A DNA stretch of 64,000 nt from Caldilineaceae bacterium (GCA_011523365.1 WTGY01000005.1:5651-69650); one strand, 5' to 3'; counted from the stretch's first letter, positions 5,457 to 55,676 are shown. A program made the numbers and translations. The notes: generated by a model not told the origin, from the letters alone.

Positions 5457-6311
5457 TTCGACGTATTCACCCTGTTTCCGCGAATCGTTTCGGGGGCCCT
5501 TTCAGAGAGCATTCTGGCCCGGGCACAGAAAAAAGGCATTCTTCAAGTAACGCTCCACAATATAAGAGAGTACGCAACAGATCGACACCACACCTGTGAC
5601 GGCTATCCCTACGGCGGGGGCGGGGGAATGGTGATGCGTCCTGAGCCGGTCGTACGTGCGGTCGAGACGGTTCTGAGCCGGCCCTCCGGCTGGCAGTTGC
5701 CGGAAGAAGCGGCGCACGTCGATTTGCCGCCCTGGAATCCGGACGAACCGCCAAGTCTGCGACAGCCTACGCCGATTATCCTGTTGACACCCCAGGGTCG
5801 CCGATTCAATCAGGACGTTGCCGAACAACTCGGCAAACATGGTCGTCTGGCGCTTGTGTGTGGACGTTATGAAGGCGTCGACGAACGGATCCGTACCCAA
5901 TTGACTTCAGATGAACTCAGTATTGGCGACTTTGTGCTCAGCGGAGGTGAAATCGCTGCACTGGCGGTCATTGATGCTGTGACGAGAACGCTGCCGGGCG
6001 TTCTCGGTCATGAGTCGGGCGCTAAGTATGACAGTTTTTCGGACGGTCTGTCCGGCCTTCTAGAAGGGCCACAGTATACGCGACCCACTGAGTTTCGGGG
6101 AGAGGCCGTACCAGAAATACTGTCCAGCGGACATCACGCCAAGGTCGAGCAGTGGCGGCGCGAACAGTCTCTCTTGCGGACGCTCAAGAGGCGTCCGGAA
6201 CTCCTGATGCGAGCGGCGGAATCCGGGCGACTGACGCAGGAGGACCGCCAATTTCTGTCCAGTCAGGGTTGGCAGTTGCCAACTAATGCTGAAGGCCTTT
6301 TCCCCACTTGA
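5370..6311 (+). CDS. trmD: tRNA (guanine37-N1)-methyltransferase
   Basis: [33 protein letters not shown] and GDFVLSGGE motifs are typical of TrmD. It carries an N-terminal extension and an internal ~30-aa insertion relative to canonical TrmD. Confidence 0.85.
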
Positions 6312-6620
6312 CCGGACAAGCGAAGCCGCAGTTTTCCCTTTCATTTTGCTACACAGCAAGACGGGACGGGCGCTTTCTGCCTGCCCAGCCCTCAGACTCT
6401 ATCCACTAAAGAAGAGTCCGTGAGCAGTGCCATTTTACCACTGCGGATCGGCCGGATCCAAATATAATTTATACGCATCTTGACGACAGAATGACTACGA
6501 ACGCAACTCAAGCGGTACGGAACGCGGGCGAAGTAGCGATTGAGTAGGCGCGGCCCCATTTTGGGTGCGTCGCAGTTTATGGATGGTTGCGGTTGGGCGG
6601 GGAACGGATGTAAGCGGTGC

Positions 6621-6980
6621 GAGGAATTGCTCTCAGGCTTGGGGAGAGAGGTACTGGGCAGGCACAGGGCCGGCACATACGGGGATCTGATGGGACTGAC
6701 GGGACGTGGTCTGGCTCGACACCTTCGATCAGCCACCCGTCACCAATATCGACACCCGGTCGATGAGGCATGTTGTTGGGGGGGCGTTGCGGGGGCGGAG
6801 CCCCCGCACAAGGGAGGGCCGAATAGGCCCGACCGCCCAGAAAAGCAATGGTCAGTGGTCAGTAGTCAGTGGTCGGTGGTCAGAGAAGGGGCTAACTCTG
6901 ACGCAGATTTGATCTCGAGAAGGTTGGGGCTCCGCAGCGACCTGAGGCATGGGGAAGTTCGCCCGAATATTGGGATGCAC
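6621..6980 (+). repeat. intergenic repeat, subfamily A, copy 1 (core double hairpin 6778-6839, heptad tail 6849-6883)
   Basis: Aligns by eye with 44981-45320 along its length. The core is shared with 23975-24034 and 55462-55521. Hairpins are GCGGGGGC-GGA-GCCCCCGC (6789-6807) and GGGCC-GAATA-GGCCC (6816-6830). Confidence 0.85.
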
Positions 6981-7218
6981 GCCCTGCTTTTGGAGTGGTA
7001 GACAGAACGGAACAAAAGAGGCATACTAGGGGCCATCGGAAACGGGACACCACTGAAAAGCGCCACTGCCGTGGATCAGAAACGAATGTTTGAAATCGTG
7101 GAGAGGAAGAGTACGTGAACTGAATCATTTCGCCTTCAGGTTTCTCCAGACTTCAAGATAGGCCGGGACGGTTACGCGGTGCGCATTTGGGTGGAGCACG
7201 GGTCGGGGAGCCAATCAG

Positions 7219-7515
7219 ATGACCAAGCGCATTTATGTGGGCAACTTGCCCTACTCGGCGACTGAGGAGGAGGTCCGGGATCTGTTTTCCCAACACGGTG
7301 AGATCATCAGCGTCGCTATGATCACCGACAGGGAAACCGGTCGATTTCGTGGATTTTGTTTTGTAGAGATGGATGACGACGCGGCTGATGCTGCGATCGA
7401 GGCCCTGAATGACCAGGAGATGGGTGGGCGCACGCTGCGAGTAAATGAGGCGCGTCCGCGGGAGGATCGCGGTAGCCAGGGCGGGTATCGGGACCGCGGC
7501 AGCAGCCGGTGGTAG
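7219..7515 (+). CDS. RRM-type (RNP-1) RNA-binding protein with Gly/Arg-rich tail
   Basis: 98 aa. RNP2 IYVGNL, RNP1 RGFCFVEM, SD-like GGGGAG upstream of the ATG. Confidence 0.9.
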   Translation: MTKRIYVGNLPYSATEEEVRDLFSQHGEIISVAMITDRETGRFRGFCFVEMDDDAADAAIEALNDQEMGGRTLRVNEARPREDRGSQGGYRDRGSSRW

Positions 7516-23510: not shown

Positions 23511-23737
23511 GGCGCCGTCTCCCTCATTCTTTTAGCGAAGCAGTTGTCGTTCAGGGACCTGGTGCAGGGGGTGGACAGTGTTTGCTTTGAGCGGTTGGGG
23601 CTCGATTGAGCGTTTCAGATTGGTCAGGTTGCGGACAAAGGAGTTGCCTCGTGCAATTTCATGCACTTTGTAGACAGGGTACATTATCTGACGAATCTTC
23701 ACATAATTCGCGTACTTTCATTCGAGGTCACTTCTAC

Positions 23738-24075
23738 GCCATGCTGTGTGTCCTGTGTGCGGTCTGTCCGGGCGGAATGTACCGTCAGTGTTTCTGTAGC
23801 GGGCTCTCGATGGTCATGGCGGTGAACGTTGGGGGATATATGGGAGCTGCCTCGCCTGCCTTGATTGGGCTGGCACATTTTCGGTACCCATCAGGAGGTG
23901 GGGGGAAGTTCTGGTCGCCGCGGGGCGCCAAGGTCATATTGCCACACACTCGATGCGGCGGGGGTTGTAGGAGAGGGGGCGTTGCGGGGGCGGAGCCCCC
24001 GCACAAGGGAGGGCCGAATAGGCCCGACCGCCCATAACTGCAGTAGTCAGTGATCAGTGGTCAGTGGTCAGTGAA
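23738..24075 (+). repeat. intergenic repeat, subfamily B, copy 2 (core 23975-24034, heptad tail 24044-24071)
   Basis: Aligns by eye with 55254-55560 and has a ~26-nt extra segment near the 5' end. The core is identical to copy 1 over 60 nt. Confidence 0.85.
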
Positions 24076-24420
24076 AGCAGCAGTTGATGGGTGATAGGTG
24101 TGAGAGGAGAGTTAAACTGGCTCGCCACGTTCAGCGTCGCGAACTTACTATGGCAGGGTGGTCACCATTCGAGAGACCCACGGACAGTCATTTCCAGAGG
24201 GCTTTTGCCATTTGACGTTGTGTTTGGAGTTTACGTGCCGCCCACTATGCCTTGAGGTCTGGAGAACTGGCTATTGAGAGGTCGCTTGCCAAAAGAGAGC
24301 TGTCGACTTGATTTCATTGCCACTCCCGGGCTACAGGCCTTGCGCAATCGGGTGCTACTAAACATTAAAAATATTCCTCCGTTTGAAGTGTTATGGCCGA
24401 ACCGGTGAGCCTTTCTGTGA

Positions 24421-44980: not shown

Positions 44981-45320
44981 GAGGATTCCTGTGGGGAGGG
45001 TGCGAGGGCAGGCACAGGGCCGGCGCCTACGGGGATCTGATGGGACAGGCGGGACGTGGTCGGGCTGGACACCTTCGATTAGGCACCTGTTACGAATATC
45101 GACACCCGGTCGGCGACGGATGTTGTTGGGGGGGGCGTTGCGGGGGCTCCGCCCCCGCACAAGGGAGGGCCGACTAGGCCCGACCGCCCAAAGGCGAGGA
45201 GAGAGTGGAGAGGAGAGAGGAGAGAGTGCTCTGATTGGCCTAGAGAGATAAGATCGTGAACCGGTCGTGGCTCAGTCCTCACCCAAGACAGTGGAGAGTT
45301 CGCGCCAATATTGGGATTCA
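44981..45320 (+). repeat. intergenic repeat, subfamily A, copy 3 (core 45128-45190, purine-rich heptad tail 45196-45230)
   Basis: Aligns by eye with 6621-6980. Core hairpin 1 has its loop reverse-complemented (TCC instead of GGA), and the hairpin 2 loop is GACTA. Confidence 0.85.
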
Positions 45321-45432
45321 CCACTGATCGTCGGGTGGATTGATCGCGACTCTGCCCGGTGCTATACTGACAGCATCCCTTCCCTCCATAGTAACGAGTT
45401 TAGTGTTCTCCAACACCGTCAGGAGAAAGCTG

Positions 45433-48082: not shown

Positions 48083-48133
48083 GCGGAACCTCTTCAGGTC
48101 GCGCGGAACCTCTTCAGGTCGCGCTGAACCTCG
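48083..48133. repeat. 20-bp direct tandem duplication (2 exact units plus a partial third)
   Basis: GCGGAACCTCTTCAGGTCGC at 48083-48102 and 48103-48122, then GCTGAACCTCG. Confidence 0.9.
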
Positions 48134-48344: not shown

Positions 48345-49958
48345 ATGCGTTCACCTTCTGCAAGCAGTATCCATTCTGCCCGGGATCACATGCCGCGGAG
48401 AAACGGTAACGGCAAGTCCAAGCTGAACAAGGTTGAATTGCTGAAGCTCAAAAAGAGTCCGCTCAGCCTCATTCAAGACATTTACCGCTGGGCCGACGAA
48501 GGGTTTGATGCAGTTCCGCCGGAGTACTACGACCTATTCAAATGGCACGGTTTCTTCTATCGCAAGCAGACGCCGGGCTATTTCATGTTGCGAATGCGCA
48601 TTTCGAACGGGATCGTCAACTCGAACCAGTTGCGTGCAATCGCCGAACTTTCGCGTGACTATGGGCGAGGCGTAGGCGACTTTACGACGCGGCAGAACAT
48701 CCAGCTGCGCTGGATCACCATCGAAGATATGCCGGGAATTGTCGAGAAGTTGCAGTCGGTCGGCCTGGGCTCCGAGCAGACGGGAATGGACAATTTCAGA
48801 AATGTAACCGGTTGCCCTCTGACCGGTCTGACGCGCCATGAGATGATTGACACGAGTCAGGTCACTGCGGCCACGGCTCTTTCGCTGTTGGGACCGCAAT
48901 TCGAGAACATTCCCCGCAAATTCAACATCTCGATCAACGGATGCCGTCTGGACTGCACGCACGCGCAGAGCAACGATATTGGGCTGACGCCAGCCACAGG
49001 ACGCATGGGAACCCGCCTTGTTCCTGGATTCAATGTCGTGGTTGGCGGACATATGGGGAGCAGGAACCCTCATCTTGCACTCCCACTAGACCTTTTCGTG
49101 CGTCCTTCGCAAGTGACGGCCTTTTGTCGGGCTGTTCTGACCGTATTTCGCGACAACGGAAACCGTGCGGTGCGGGGCAAGGCACGACTTTGGTATCTGA
49201 TCGACGAGTGGGGCCTAGACCGCTTTCGGGACGAGGTGACAGAGGCGTATGGGGAGAAGTTGCCGACAGCCGGCGCGTGCCAGCTCTACGCCAACCCTGA
49301 CCCGCTTGAACAGGACCACGTGGGCGTGCATCCGCAGTTCCAGGAGGGACTGAGCTACGTGGGCATGATTGTGCCAACGGGCCGCATCACAGCGGAGCAG
49401 CTCTTTGCGCTTGCCGGACTGGCGGACGAATACGGCAGCAGGGAGATTCGGCTGACCAACGACCAGAATGTAATCATCCCCAACGTCCCCGATCGAAGAC
49501 TCGACGAACTGCTGGCGGAGCCGTTGCTGGATGAGTGGAGCCCCTCGCCCTCGGGGGTCGTGCGGGGGCTGGTCACCTGTACGGGCATAGACCACTGCCA
49601 CTTCGCGCTTAACGACACCAAGGGAATCTCGCTGGCTATCGCGCGCAAACTGGAGGAGAGGTTGCCCGACCGTGACAAAGTGGTGCGACTGAACGTGTCG
49701 GGGTGTGTTCACGCATGCGGTCGCCACCGGCTGACCGAAATCGGACTGGAAGCAACCCGTTTGCGCCAGGACGGCAGCGTGATCGACGGATTCAACATTT
49801 TTGAAGGCGGCCGTCTGGGTGAAGACGCGAGATTGGGCGTCGAGACCCACCGGAAGGCGACGATAGAGGAGACAACCGAGCTGCTGGCCGACGTGATCGC
49901 TAACCGCTACCAGTCTGACGCGGTCCCGGACGCGATCCTGGACGCAGTTACAGCCTAA
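48345..49958 (+). CDS. nirA: ferredoxin-nitrite reductase (nitrite/sulfite reductase hemoprotein family)
   Basis: 537 aa. Duplicated NiR/SiR ferredoxin-like halves and a C-terminal siroheme/4Fe-4S Cys cluster (TCTGIDHC...SGCVHAC). Adjacent to narK and narB. Confidence 0.9.
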   Translation: MRSPSASSIHSARDHMPRRNGNGKSKLNKVELLKLKKSPLSLIQDIYRWADEGFDAVPPEYYDLFKWHGFFYRKQTPGYFMLRMRISNGIVNSNQLRAIAELSRDYGRGVGDFTTRQNIQLRWITIEDMPGIVEKLQSVGLGSEQTGMDNFRNVTGCPLTGLTRHEMIDTSQVTAATALSLLGPQFENIPRKFNISINGCRLDCTHAQSNDIGLTPATGRMGTRLVPGFNVVVGGHMGSRNPHLALPLDLFVRPSQVTAFCRAVLTVFRDNGNRAVRGKARLWYLIDEWGLDRFRDEVTEAYGEKLPTAGACQLYANPDPLEQDHVGVHPQFQEGLSYVGMIVPTGRITAEQLFALAGLADEYGSREIRLTNDQNVIIPNVPDRRLDELLAEPLLDEWSPSPSGVVRGLVTCTGIDHCHFALNDTKGISLAIARKLEERLPDRDKVVRLNVSGCVHACGRHRLTEIGLEATRLRQDGSVIDGFNIFEGGRLGEDARLGVETHRKATIEETTELLADVIANRYQSDAVPDAILDAVTA

Positions 49959-55200: not shown

Positions 55201-55230
55201 TTGACTTCAACCCTGAATCGGTGCAGAATT
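55201..55230 (+). promoter_or_regulatory. candidate promoter directly upstream of repeat copy 4
   Basis: TTGACT, 17-nt spacer, CAGAAT (alternatively TGcAGAATT). It ends about 25 nt before subfamily B homology begins. Confidence 0.3.
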
Positions 55231-55253
55231 TTAATGTTAAGGGTAAATACTGA

Positions 55254-55560
55254 GCCATGTCTGTGTGCGGTCTGTCTGTAGCGGGCTCGCGATGGTCATA
55301 GCGGTGGACGTGGGGCTTATATTGGAGTTGCCTCGCCTGTCTTGCCTGCACTGGCACATACTCTGAATGTGCCAAGACGCGGGATGGGGGGGTTGAAGCC
55401 CGGCCGCCGCGGGACGCCAACTTCAAATTAGCCACACACTCGCTACGGCGCGGACAGGAGAGGGGGCGTTGCGGGGGCGGAGCCCCCGCACAAAGGAGGG
55501 CCGAATAGGCCCGACCGCCCATAACTGCAGTGGCCAGTGGTAAATGGCCAGTTGTCAGAG
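55254..55560 (+). repeat. intergenic repeat, subfamily B, copy 4 (core 55462-55521, heptad tail 55531-55558)
   Basis: Aligns by eye with 23738-24075. The core has one G>A change in the inter-hairpin linker. Confidence 0.85.
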
Positions 55561-55676
55561 AGAGCGCTTCCCCTGCCCCAGAATTGATCGCGGAATGGCT
55601 ATGGCTTAGTCGTTAGCTGTTAAGACAGGCTGGTTGTCGACGATTCCACCAGCTCATATTTTTACAGGATTTACTC

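Follow-up and report, generated by a model that had tools for sequence, protein, structure and literature searches.

A double-hairpin module as the probable core of a replichore-polarized family of miniature transposable elements in Caldilineaceae

The DNA analyzed here, referred to as the window, is a 64,000-nucleotide stretch from a Caldilineaceae bacterium (Chloroflexota; GCA_011523365.1 WTGY01000005.1:5651-69650) and is identical to contig k141_66881 of ENA ERZ27234780. It harbors four copies of a 60-nt double-hairpin module, all on the + strand and differing from each other by 0-4 bases. Copy 1 lies in the gap between trmD and the gene of an RRM protein, and copy 4 in the gap between a DUF2905 and a LysM-PA14 gene; the distances from the module to the next + strand gene are 380, 483, about 243, and 156 nt for copies 1-4, respectively. 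An earlier sequence-only reading had described four near-invariant, same-strand copies with no transposase, reverse transcriptase, or Cas gene adjoining them, and both observations hold. The module is very probably the conserved internal core of a new family of miniature inverted-repeat transposable elements (MITEs) that is specific to one clade within the Caldilineaceae. The parts of the four window copies, with terminal inverted repeats abbreviated as TIRs and arrays called by TRF where so marked, are as follows.

6563..6983, + strand: copy 1, full-length A-type MITE of ~420 bp (nhmmer, model positions 2-471 of 472, E = 2e-89)
6563..6590, + strand: copy 1, degenerate left TIR (19/29 positions identical to the family consensus GGGTGCATCCCAGATTTGGGGTG)
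6780..6839, + strand: copy 1, module (60/60 identical to the family consensus)
6849..6883, + strand: copy 1, heptamer array, TGGTCAG x5 (TRF)
6958..6983, + strand: copy 1, right TIR GTTCGCCCGAATATTGGGATGCACGC
6555-6563 and 6984-6992: copy 1, remnant of the target duplication, CCCATTTTG and CTGCTTTTG (6/9 match)
23727..24165, + strand: copy 2, full-length B-type MITE of 439 bp with a variant right arm (B model positions 2-354, E = 4e-103); right arm and right end placed by comparison with loci L036, L085, and L107
23719-23726 and 24166-24173: copy 2, target duplication CATTCGAG, perfect over 8 bp
23975..24034, + strand: copy 2, module (0 mismatches)
24041..24074, + strand: copy 2, heptamer array (TRF)
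44991..45323, + strand: copy 3, 5'-truncated A-type MITE (model positions 134-470; left TIR absent)
near 45300-45323, + strand: copy 3, right TIR
45131..45190, + strand: copy 3, module with loop 1 flipped (GGA>TCC) and loop 2 GACTA
45192..45226, + strand: copy 3, period-7 purine array of the GAGGAGA type (TRF)
55243..55617, + strand: copy 4, full-length B-type MITE of 375 bp (termini GTAAATACTGAGCC... and ...GGCTTAGTCGTTAGC)
55235-55242 and 55618-55625: copy 4, target duplication, TGTTAAGG and TGTTAAGA
55462..55521, + strand: copy 4, module with G>A in the linker
55530..55556, + strand: copy 4, degenerate heptamers GGCCAGT GGTAAAT GGCCAGT TGTCAGA

A pattern scan of one genome per species returns at least 100 loci, and the counts over sets of copies given here rest on the matches listed. 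In an all-against-all blastn of 66 copies with full flanks, similarity around the module extends from about -280 to +200 nt and resolves two upstream subfamilies, A (44 copies) and B (18 copies), as well as several downstream subfamilies, which are combined as mosaics. The order of parts is a TIR, a left arm of 250-280 nt, the module, an array of 3-6 heptamer units, a right arm of 70-130 nt, and a second TIR, giving elements of 375-470 bp, a size below the limit of about 600 bp used for MITEs. A-type elements align over ~470 nt with sharp edges of conservation, start with GGGTGCATCCCAGATTTGGGGTG, end with CACCCCCATTTTGGGATGCACCC, and have a TIR of ~23 bp. The B-type TIR is ~17 bp long (GTAACTACTAAGCCATG / CATGGCTTAGTAGTTGC), the elements starting with G(G)TAACTACTAAGCCATG and finishing with CATGGCTTAGT(A/C)GTTGC. 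Layouts in which the module is enclosed by opposed ends of one class (A+..M+..A- and B+..M+..B-) recur among 100 listed loci, such that a single hairpin core is common to two classes of termini. In the window, ~130 nt upstream are common to copies 1 and 3 (88% identity), ~230 nt upstream are common to copies 2 and 4, and period-7 arrays follow all four modules; the previous description of the flanks as much more diverged than the module therefore does not hold as stated.

Both classes of element are bordered by target duplications. Of the A-type copies with both ends (n = 22), 6 have a perfect duplication of 8-9 bp and about 11 have one with a single mismatch, examples being CTATGCGC, GCAGTTCGT, GTTTGACA, AAGAAGGG, and GGTAGATTT; B-type duplications are 8 bp long (ACTGAATT and, at window copy 2, CATTCGAG). 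No fixed motif or target consensus is evident among the duplicated sequences. Insertion of the elements duplicated 8-9 bp of the target site, which is the behavior of DDE transposases acting in trans.

The identity of the element as a MITE is settled by related genomes that keep empty sites with one copy of the target. Copy 4 is absent from the gap between the DUF2905 and LysM-PA14 genes in three related genomes (L113, L114, and L116), OZ244818.1 among them (protein 88% identical); the empty site reads ...TTTTAGTGTTAAGGCAGG..., containing TGTTAAGG once, compared with TGTTAAGG-[375 bp]-TGTTAAGA in the window. Copy 1 is absent from the gap between trmD and the RRM gene in two more distant genomes (L111 and L112), and the empty site of L111 has a single CTGCTTTT. 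The near-identical strains L101 and L102 show no presence/absence polymorphism of copy 1. The module is thus not the unit of its own that had been proposed, and an insertion-sequence or MITE origin, which the sequence-only reading had named beforehand as the refuting outcome, is what was found. Among the three identities offered there, a hairpin element of DNA resembling repetitive extragenic palindromes (REPs) came nearest, although it misses the transposon structure.

Open reading frames across the elements are inconsistent in frame, rich in Arg and Pro, and unconserved, in agreement with the earlier view of the module as non-coding. A minus-strand reading frame in the A-type left arm (MPHRPGVDIG...) was considered as a coding candidate and rejected; it is rich in Arg, Pro, and Cys and has no ATG in copy 3. 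Two observations concern the wider range of element forms. At L073:3155-3255, a mini element of ~100 bp has A-type ends but neither module nor arms, and A-type ends thus delimit a MITE family wider than the module-bearing set. At 1630-2230 of L060 (OZ242331.1, a more distant Caldilineaceae genome), three modules stand in tandem, 240-263 nt apart, each accompanied by a separate heptamer array of the GTGATTC type and by a repeated spacer of ~130 nt, indicating that the core can amplify in tandem.

The module itself, GGGGGCGTTGCGGGGGCGGAGCCCCCGCACAAGGGAGGGCCGAATAGGCCCGACCGCCCA, is found exactly at 6780-6839 and 23975-24034 and with one G>A in the linker at 55462-55521; no occurrence is expected by chance (100 shuffles). 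In the copy at 45131-45190, only the loops are changed: loop 1 has become its own exact reverse complement (GGA>TCC), and an A>C change turns loop 2 into GACTA. These differences are those reported previously, and the fold that had been proposed, a closing helix around two hairpins, agrees with prediction. On the + strand, the predicted structure consists of the closing helix and of hairpins 1 and 2 (9 and 5 bp, respectively), with an energy of -41.9 kcal/mol and z = -3.8 relative to shuffled sequences; the minus strand is nearly as stable. The stems, the 5' GGGGGCGTT, and the linker CACAAGGGAG are near-invariant across copies, and the loops of the sampled copies vary: GGA, TCC, AGT, CGT, TGT, and AAT in loop 1, and GAATA, GACTA, GACCA, GGAAC, GGAAA, and GAA in loop 2.

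Counted over 20 pairs and 21 variants, 98% of cells are paired. One hairpin-1 pair is switched from C:G to G:C in 6/21 variants, and the six G.U cells are all compatible with pairing on the + strand. A distant copy at L116:850-915, a chance find that is independent of the search pattern, keeps pairing in both hairpins and an unchanged linker; its hairpin 1 contains a G.U pair, and its hairpin 2 reads GGGCG-CTGG-CGCCC, with a second C:G>G:C switch. The maintenance of stem pairing by compensatory and G.T/G.U changes, with loops free or flipped, suggests from a small number of events that the hairpins matter as structure. These pairing data are compatible with RNA and single-stranded DNA alike. 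The flip of loop 1 to its reverse complement recurs in three copies of different subfamilies and may reflect hairpin formation in DNA during replication, for which this type of change is expected.

Directly 3' of nearly every module in the family, as of all four in the window, lies the period-7 tandem array. The period is always 7, and the unit varies (GGTCAGT, AGTCAGT, GGTTAGT, GGGGCCA, TTTTCAG, GATTCGT, GGATAGT, and GAGGAGA), with most units keeping AG (or CG) before the last base. Arrays of the GGGGNNN type could have G-quadruplex potential.

How the module persists as its surroundings decay is best seen at copy 1. Comparison of the window with the 100 pattern-scanned loci gave no synteny; orthologs were therefore fetched through neighboring proteins, for copy 1 the adjacent GNAT protein, so that the module pattern played no part in this sampling. 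The insertion of copy 1 is old: five more genomes (GNAT proteins 75-90% identical) have an A-type element at this position. Across several species, the module at this trmD-RRM insertion is 88-100% identical, compared with 30-70% for the arms and TIRs. Between the window and L107, identity is 56/56 in the module, 67% in the left arm, 48% in the heptamers and right arm, 50% and 30% in the left and right TIRs, and 68% and 81% in the host flanks; between the window and L109, the corresponding values are 91%, 50%, 54%, 64% and 48%, and 77% and 89%. Relative to the family consensus, copy 1 matches at 60/60 positions of the module and 275/353 of the remainder, and under uniform decay the probability of 60 unchanged positions is 0.78^60, about 3e-7. 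The inner 130 nt beside the module are also well preserved (116/127 versus consensus). With its TIRs decayed and its module at 60/60, copy 1 indicates that the module has been held constant at that locus. After insertion, the TIRs and arms decay and the module remains near-invariant, presumably through purifying selection, short-tract gene conversion among hundreds of copies, or both.

That the invariance involves no function at all, and instead reflects concerted evolution through short ectopic conversion, seeded by the longest identical GC-rich stretch, together with recent bursts from master copies, is possible rather than probable. Different subfamilies meet at the core to give mosaic arms, and the L107 ortholog of copy 1 (L107 3224-3400 versus window 6840-6983) changes at the module from an A-type left half to a B-type right arm and end, a chimera that indicates recombination or conversion between MITE subfamilies at their common core. 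Hairpin-1 variants of the G:C type are genome-specific and are present even at the old trmD-RRM locus in L109 and L110, and conversion could equally account for the preserved inner 130 nt of copy 1. However, the outer arms and TIRs of copy 1 are 25-40% off consensus and have evidently not been overwritten, and conversion would need tracts confined to about 60-190 nt at many loci. The distant L116 copy, which keeps its pairing by compensatory change, points instead to structural constraint.

The orientation of the module follows replication. After masking of the element, the surrounding 8 kb have a positive GC skew when read along the module strand at 76/80 loci (mean +0.11, p = 3e-18). In ~95% of copies, the module thus lies on the G-rich, presumed leading strand, although that strand holds only 58% of coding bases at the 80 loci. 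The rule is kept at 19/20 loci where the majority of genes lie on the opposite strand and at 13/15 where the downstream gene does. In OZ244818.1, 21/21 copies fall into two blocks, + at 5.46-5.76 and 0.06-1.98 Mb and - at 3.13-4.66 Mb, and in CBDETM010000002.1, 18/20 copies fit two strand blocks; in these two complete chromosomes, the module strand switches once per replichore regardless of gene orientation. The polarity is common to A-type, B-type, and divergent carriers. Within the window, whose genes are mostly on the + strand, GC skew is positive in 31/32 2-kb bins and averages about +0.08; the window falls entirely inside a single replichore, and the skew of its genome is unusually strong.

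The placement of the copies upstream of + strand genes, emphasized in the sequence-only reading, is correct as to distances, but the pattern is mostly a by-product of this polarity. The downstream gene is co-oriented with the module in 77 and opposite in 19 of 96 cases, and the intergenic setting is divergent in 29 and convergent in 4; the 77:19 ratio is largely due to the polarity, a mild gene-strand bias, and the preference for divergent gaps.

Orientation bias of insertion sequences relative to replication is documented, being strongest in IS200/IS605, IS607, IS91, and ISL3, the last of which is among the families with a consistent bias, and Gomez et al. argue that the bias arises at insertion and not through selection afterwards (PMC3971601). 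In the present family, too, the most likely source of the polarity is fork-coupled transposition that fixes the orientation as the element inserts, because all 15 copies with near-intact duplications and a computable skew are already polar. The hairpins would most plausibly act on the single-stranded lagging-strand template, which carries the module + strand.

An alternative is that insertion is random and polarity is produced afterwards by selection, either because inversions within a replichore are harmful or because the G-rich core is harmful or useless on the lagging strand. This is somewhat doubtful. A-type, B-type, and divergent carriers are all polar despite their different termini, so that polarity follows the core, as such selection would have it; copies that are direct within a replichore and inverted between replichores would also leave only symmetric inversions possible. 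On the other hand, the 15 polar copies with near-intact duplications are presumably the youngest, strong selection would be needed on each of hundreds of 0.4-kb insertions, and the placement of the bias at insertion by Gomez et al. (PMC3971601) argues for an earlier origin.

It is very unlikely that the module is a structured non-coding RNA or a 5'-leader element, transcribed in the + sense and acting on the downstream gene. The stability of the fold, the restriction of G.U-compatible changes to the + strand, and the co-orientation of the downstream gene in 77/96 cases would suit such an RNA, as would the position of copy 4, which sits behind a conserved promoter (TTGACT-17-CAGAAT, 55201-55229), 6 nt past the -10 box, and is probably within the LysM-PA14 5' untranslated region. 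Copy 1, however, lies on the upstream side of the RRM-gene promoter (TAGACA-17-CATACT, 6999-7027), which is kept in all orthologs including empty sites; it is 16 nt away from the -35 box and thus outside the transcript; copies 1 and 4 together provide no consistent RNA context. No promoter-like or terminator-like site is called on the + strand within the elements, where an A-rich spacer and no U tract follows the module, leaving the signature of an intrinsic terminator unmatched; copy 4 has weak terminator calls on the minus strand only, at about the rate of shuffled sequence. Rfam yields 0 matches in a gathering-threshold scan of the whole window and only noise in a relaxed scan of 6300-7250 (one miRNA model at E = 6.4), in line with the earlier statement that the module is not a named RNA family. 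In addition, orientation follows GC skew rather than transcription at the loci with discordant genes described above, and the sequences of the arms and heptamers vary among copies.

Elements of the IS200/IS605 type and palindrome-associated transposable elements (PATEs) are not known to carry TIRs or to produce target duplications. That the module is REP- or REPIN-like, or an IS200/IS605-derived PATE moved as single-stranded DNA by an HUH (Y1) transposase at the lagging template, is highly improbable: the high copy number of GC-rich extragenic hairpins, a very strong replication-strand polarity like that reported for IS200 and IS200/IS605 (PMC3971601), and loop flips that may point to hairpin formation in DNA are outweighed by the TIRs of 17-23 bp, the duplications of 8-9 bp, the empty sites with a single octamer of the kind that is duplicated at filled ones, the lack of GTAG or CGTC tags at the hairpin base, and the lack of a RAYT or TnpA gene near the copies examined, with no genome-wide search made.

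Several points weigh against the interpretation of the module as the conserved core of a MITE family polarized at insertion. Scans of ~0.9 Mb of loci, both for matching TIRs and for inverted repeats with duplications, find no autonomous or otherwise transposase-bearing element. Transposons with symmetric TIRs and target duplications are not expected to be orientation-biased, and insertion coupled to the fork is what the polarity of the least decayed copies suggests, not an observed event. Gene conversion is plausible beside selection in view of the L107 right arm and the genome-specific hairpin-1 variants. The outer part of the closing helix is mismatched in the variant CGCAC, carried by five sampled copies, and covariation is thin: each hairpin offers one compensatory pair, which probably arose only once. 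Finally, the central 28 nt of most sampled copies are fixed by the search pattern, so that the unbiased evidence for invariance consists of the two loci fetched via protein synteny.

In comparison with known systems, the family shares with bacterial MITEs (Correia/NEMIS of Neisseria, RUP of Streptococcus pneumoniae, and Nezha of cyanobacteria) short non-coding elements, TIRs, fixed-length duplications, high copy number, intergenic and often promoter-near positions, empty sites, and breaks in short-read assemblies. In contrast to those, it combines two TIR classes with one core, its most conserved part is the internal 60-nt hairpin rather than the termini, the core outlasts the termini, a period-7 microsatellite is built in, and ~95% of copies are co-oriented with replication. 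REP/BIME and REPIN-RAYT systems are similar in comprising hundreds of GC-rich extragenic palindromes, arranged as mosaics and possibly forming hairpins in single-stranded DNA. REPs, however, are 20-40 bp long, RAYT-linked, tagged with GTAG/CGTC, and free of TIRs and duplications, whereas the elements described here have TIRs, duplications, and empty sites but no tag.

DDE insertion sequences of the ISL3, IS256, IS1, and IS903 types generate duplications of 8-9 bp, matching the length seen here. The start of the A-type TIR, GGGT...TCC...ATTT...GG, may resemble some ISL3 ends. Unlike these insertion sequences, the present elements have no transposase gene in the loci scanned. Tandem intergenic heptamers are known from the STRR of cyanobacteria, and pneumococcal BOX elements are modular with a variable number of internal units. 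In contrast to both, the heptamer array here is a fixed compartment of a transposon beside the module, variable in sequence and constant in period. IS200/IS605 elements and PATEs are alike in bearing hairpins and in a strong fork-relative orientation bias (PMC3971601); they differ in inserting by a short specific sequence without TIRs or duplications, while the present family has both and no target consensus.

KOPS/SRS and Chi show a comparable, near-complete co-orientation with replication that switches at replichore boundaries, and the window holds ~1 module per 16 kb. These signals are immobile words of 5-8 nt read by FtsK/SpoIIIE or RecBCD/AddAB, whereas the module is a hairpin cassette of 60 nt that travels on a transposon. 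On a speculative and rather unlikely view, the MITE-borne hairpin would itself be a mobile strand-specific chromosome signal, a lagging-template hairpin or a polar duplex site for a host replication, recombination, or segregation factor, seeded by transposition approximately every 16 kb in the direction of replication and selected after the transposon ends decay, and thus the transposable counterpart of KOPS, Chi, or primosome-assembly hairpins.

The basic kind of element, a MITE, is ordinary; unusual are the core common to two end classes, its invariance after the ends decay, and the ~95% polarity. If the polarity is set at insertion, the family would offer a natural system for fork-coupled transposition by an element with TIRs and duplications, outside Firmicutes; if polarity and conservation reflect use by the host, a transposon would be distributing a polar chromosomal signal. 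In either case, the copies are a replichore marker that could orient contigs and locate the origin and terminus in uncultured bacteria. No description of MITEs in Caldilineaceae or of replichore-polarized MITEs was found in the literature searched.

All 80/80 record titles among the matches listed are those of Caldilineaceae (Chloroflexota) metagenome-assembled genomes (MAGs), which come from roughly ten assemblies; going by their names, several bins may derive from sponges. The listed module matches are on both strands, and many lie exactly at contig ends. No family match is found in IMG/VR viral contigs or, by blastn, in PLSDB plasmids or GenBank phages. In JGI metagenome contigs, a pattern with a changed hairpin-2 stem and a looser module pattern each give 0 matches, the latter result implying that the family is absent from that collection. 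Two short-read contigs with the same RRM gene terminate inside copy 1, and short-read contigs (L103, L104, and many of L001-L100) often begin or end in the module or MITE, for example at locus positions 2-36. The family systematically interrupts the assembly of Caldilineaceae MAGs; in practical terms, it fragments short-read assemblies and inflates intergenic regions.

Two further features of the window are separate from the family. Host non-coding blocks at 6424-6545, which contains TTGACGACAGAATGACTACGAACGCAACTCAAGCGGTACGGAACGCGGGCGAAG, and 6990-7218, a leader of ~200 nt after the promoter TAGACA-17-CATACT, flank copy 1 and are strongly conserved between species, with many invariant alignment columns, even where the MITE is absent; they give no match in the relaxed Rfam scan and may be a regulatory leader or a small RNA. 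At 48083-48132, the gap preceding the gene at 48345 holds 2.5 copies of a 20-nt unit, GCGGAACCTCTTCAGGTCGC, that are 96% identical and unrelated to the MITE.

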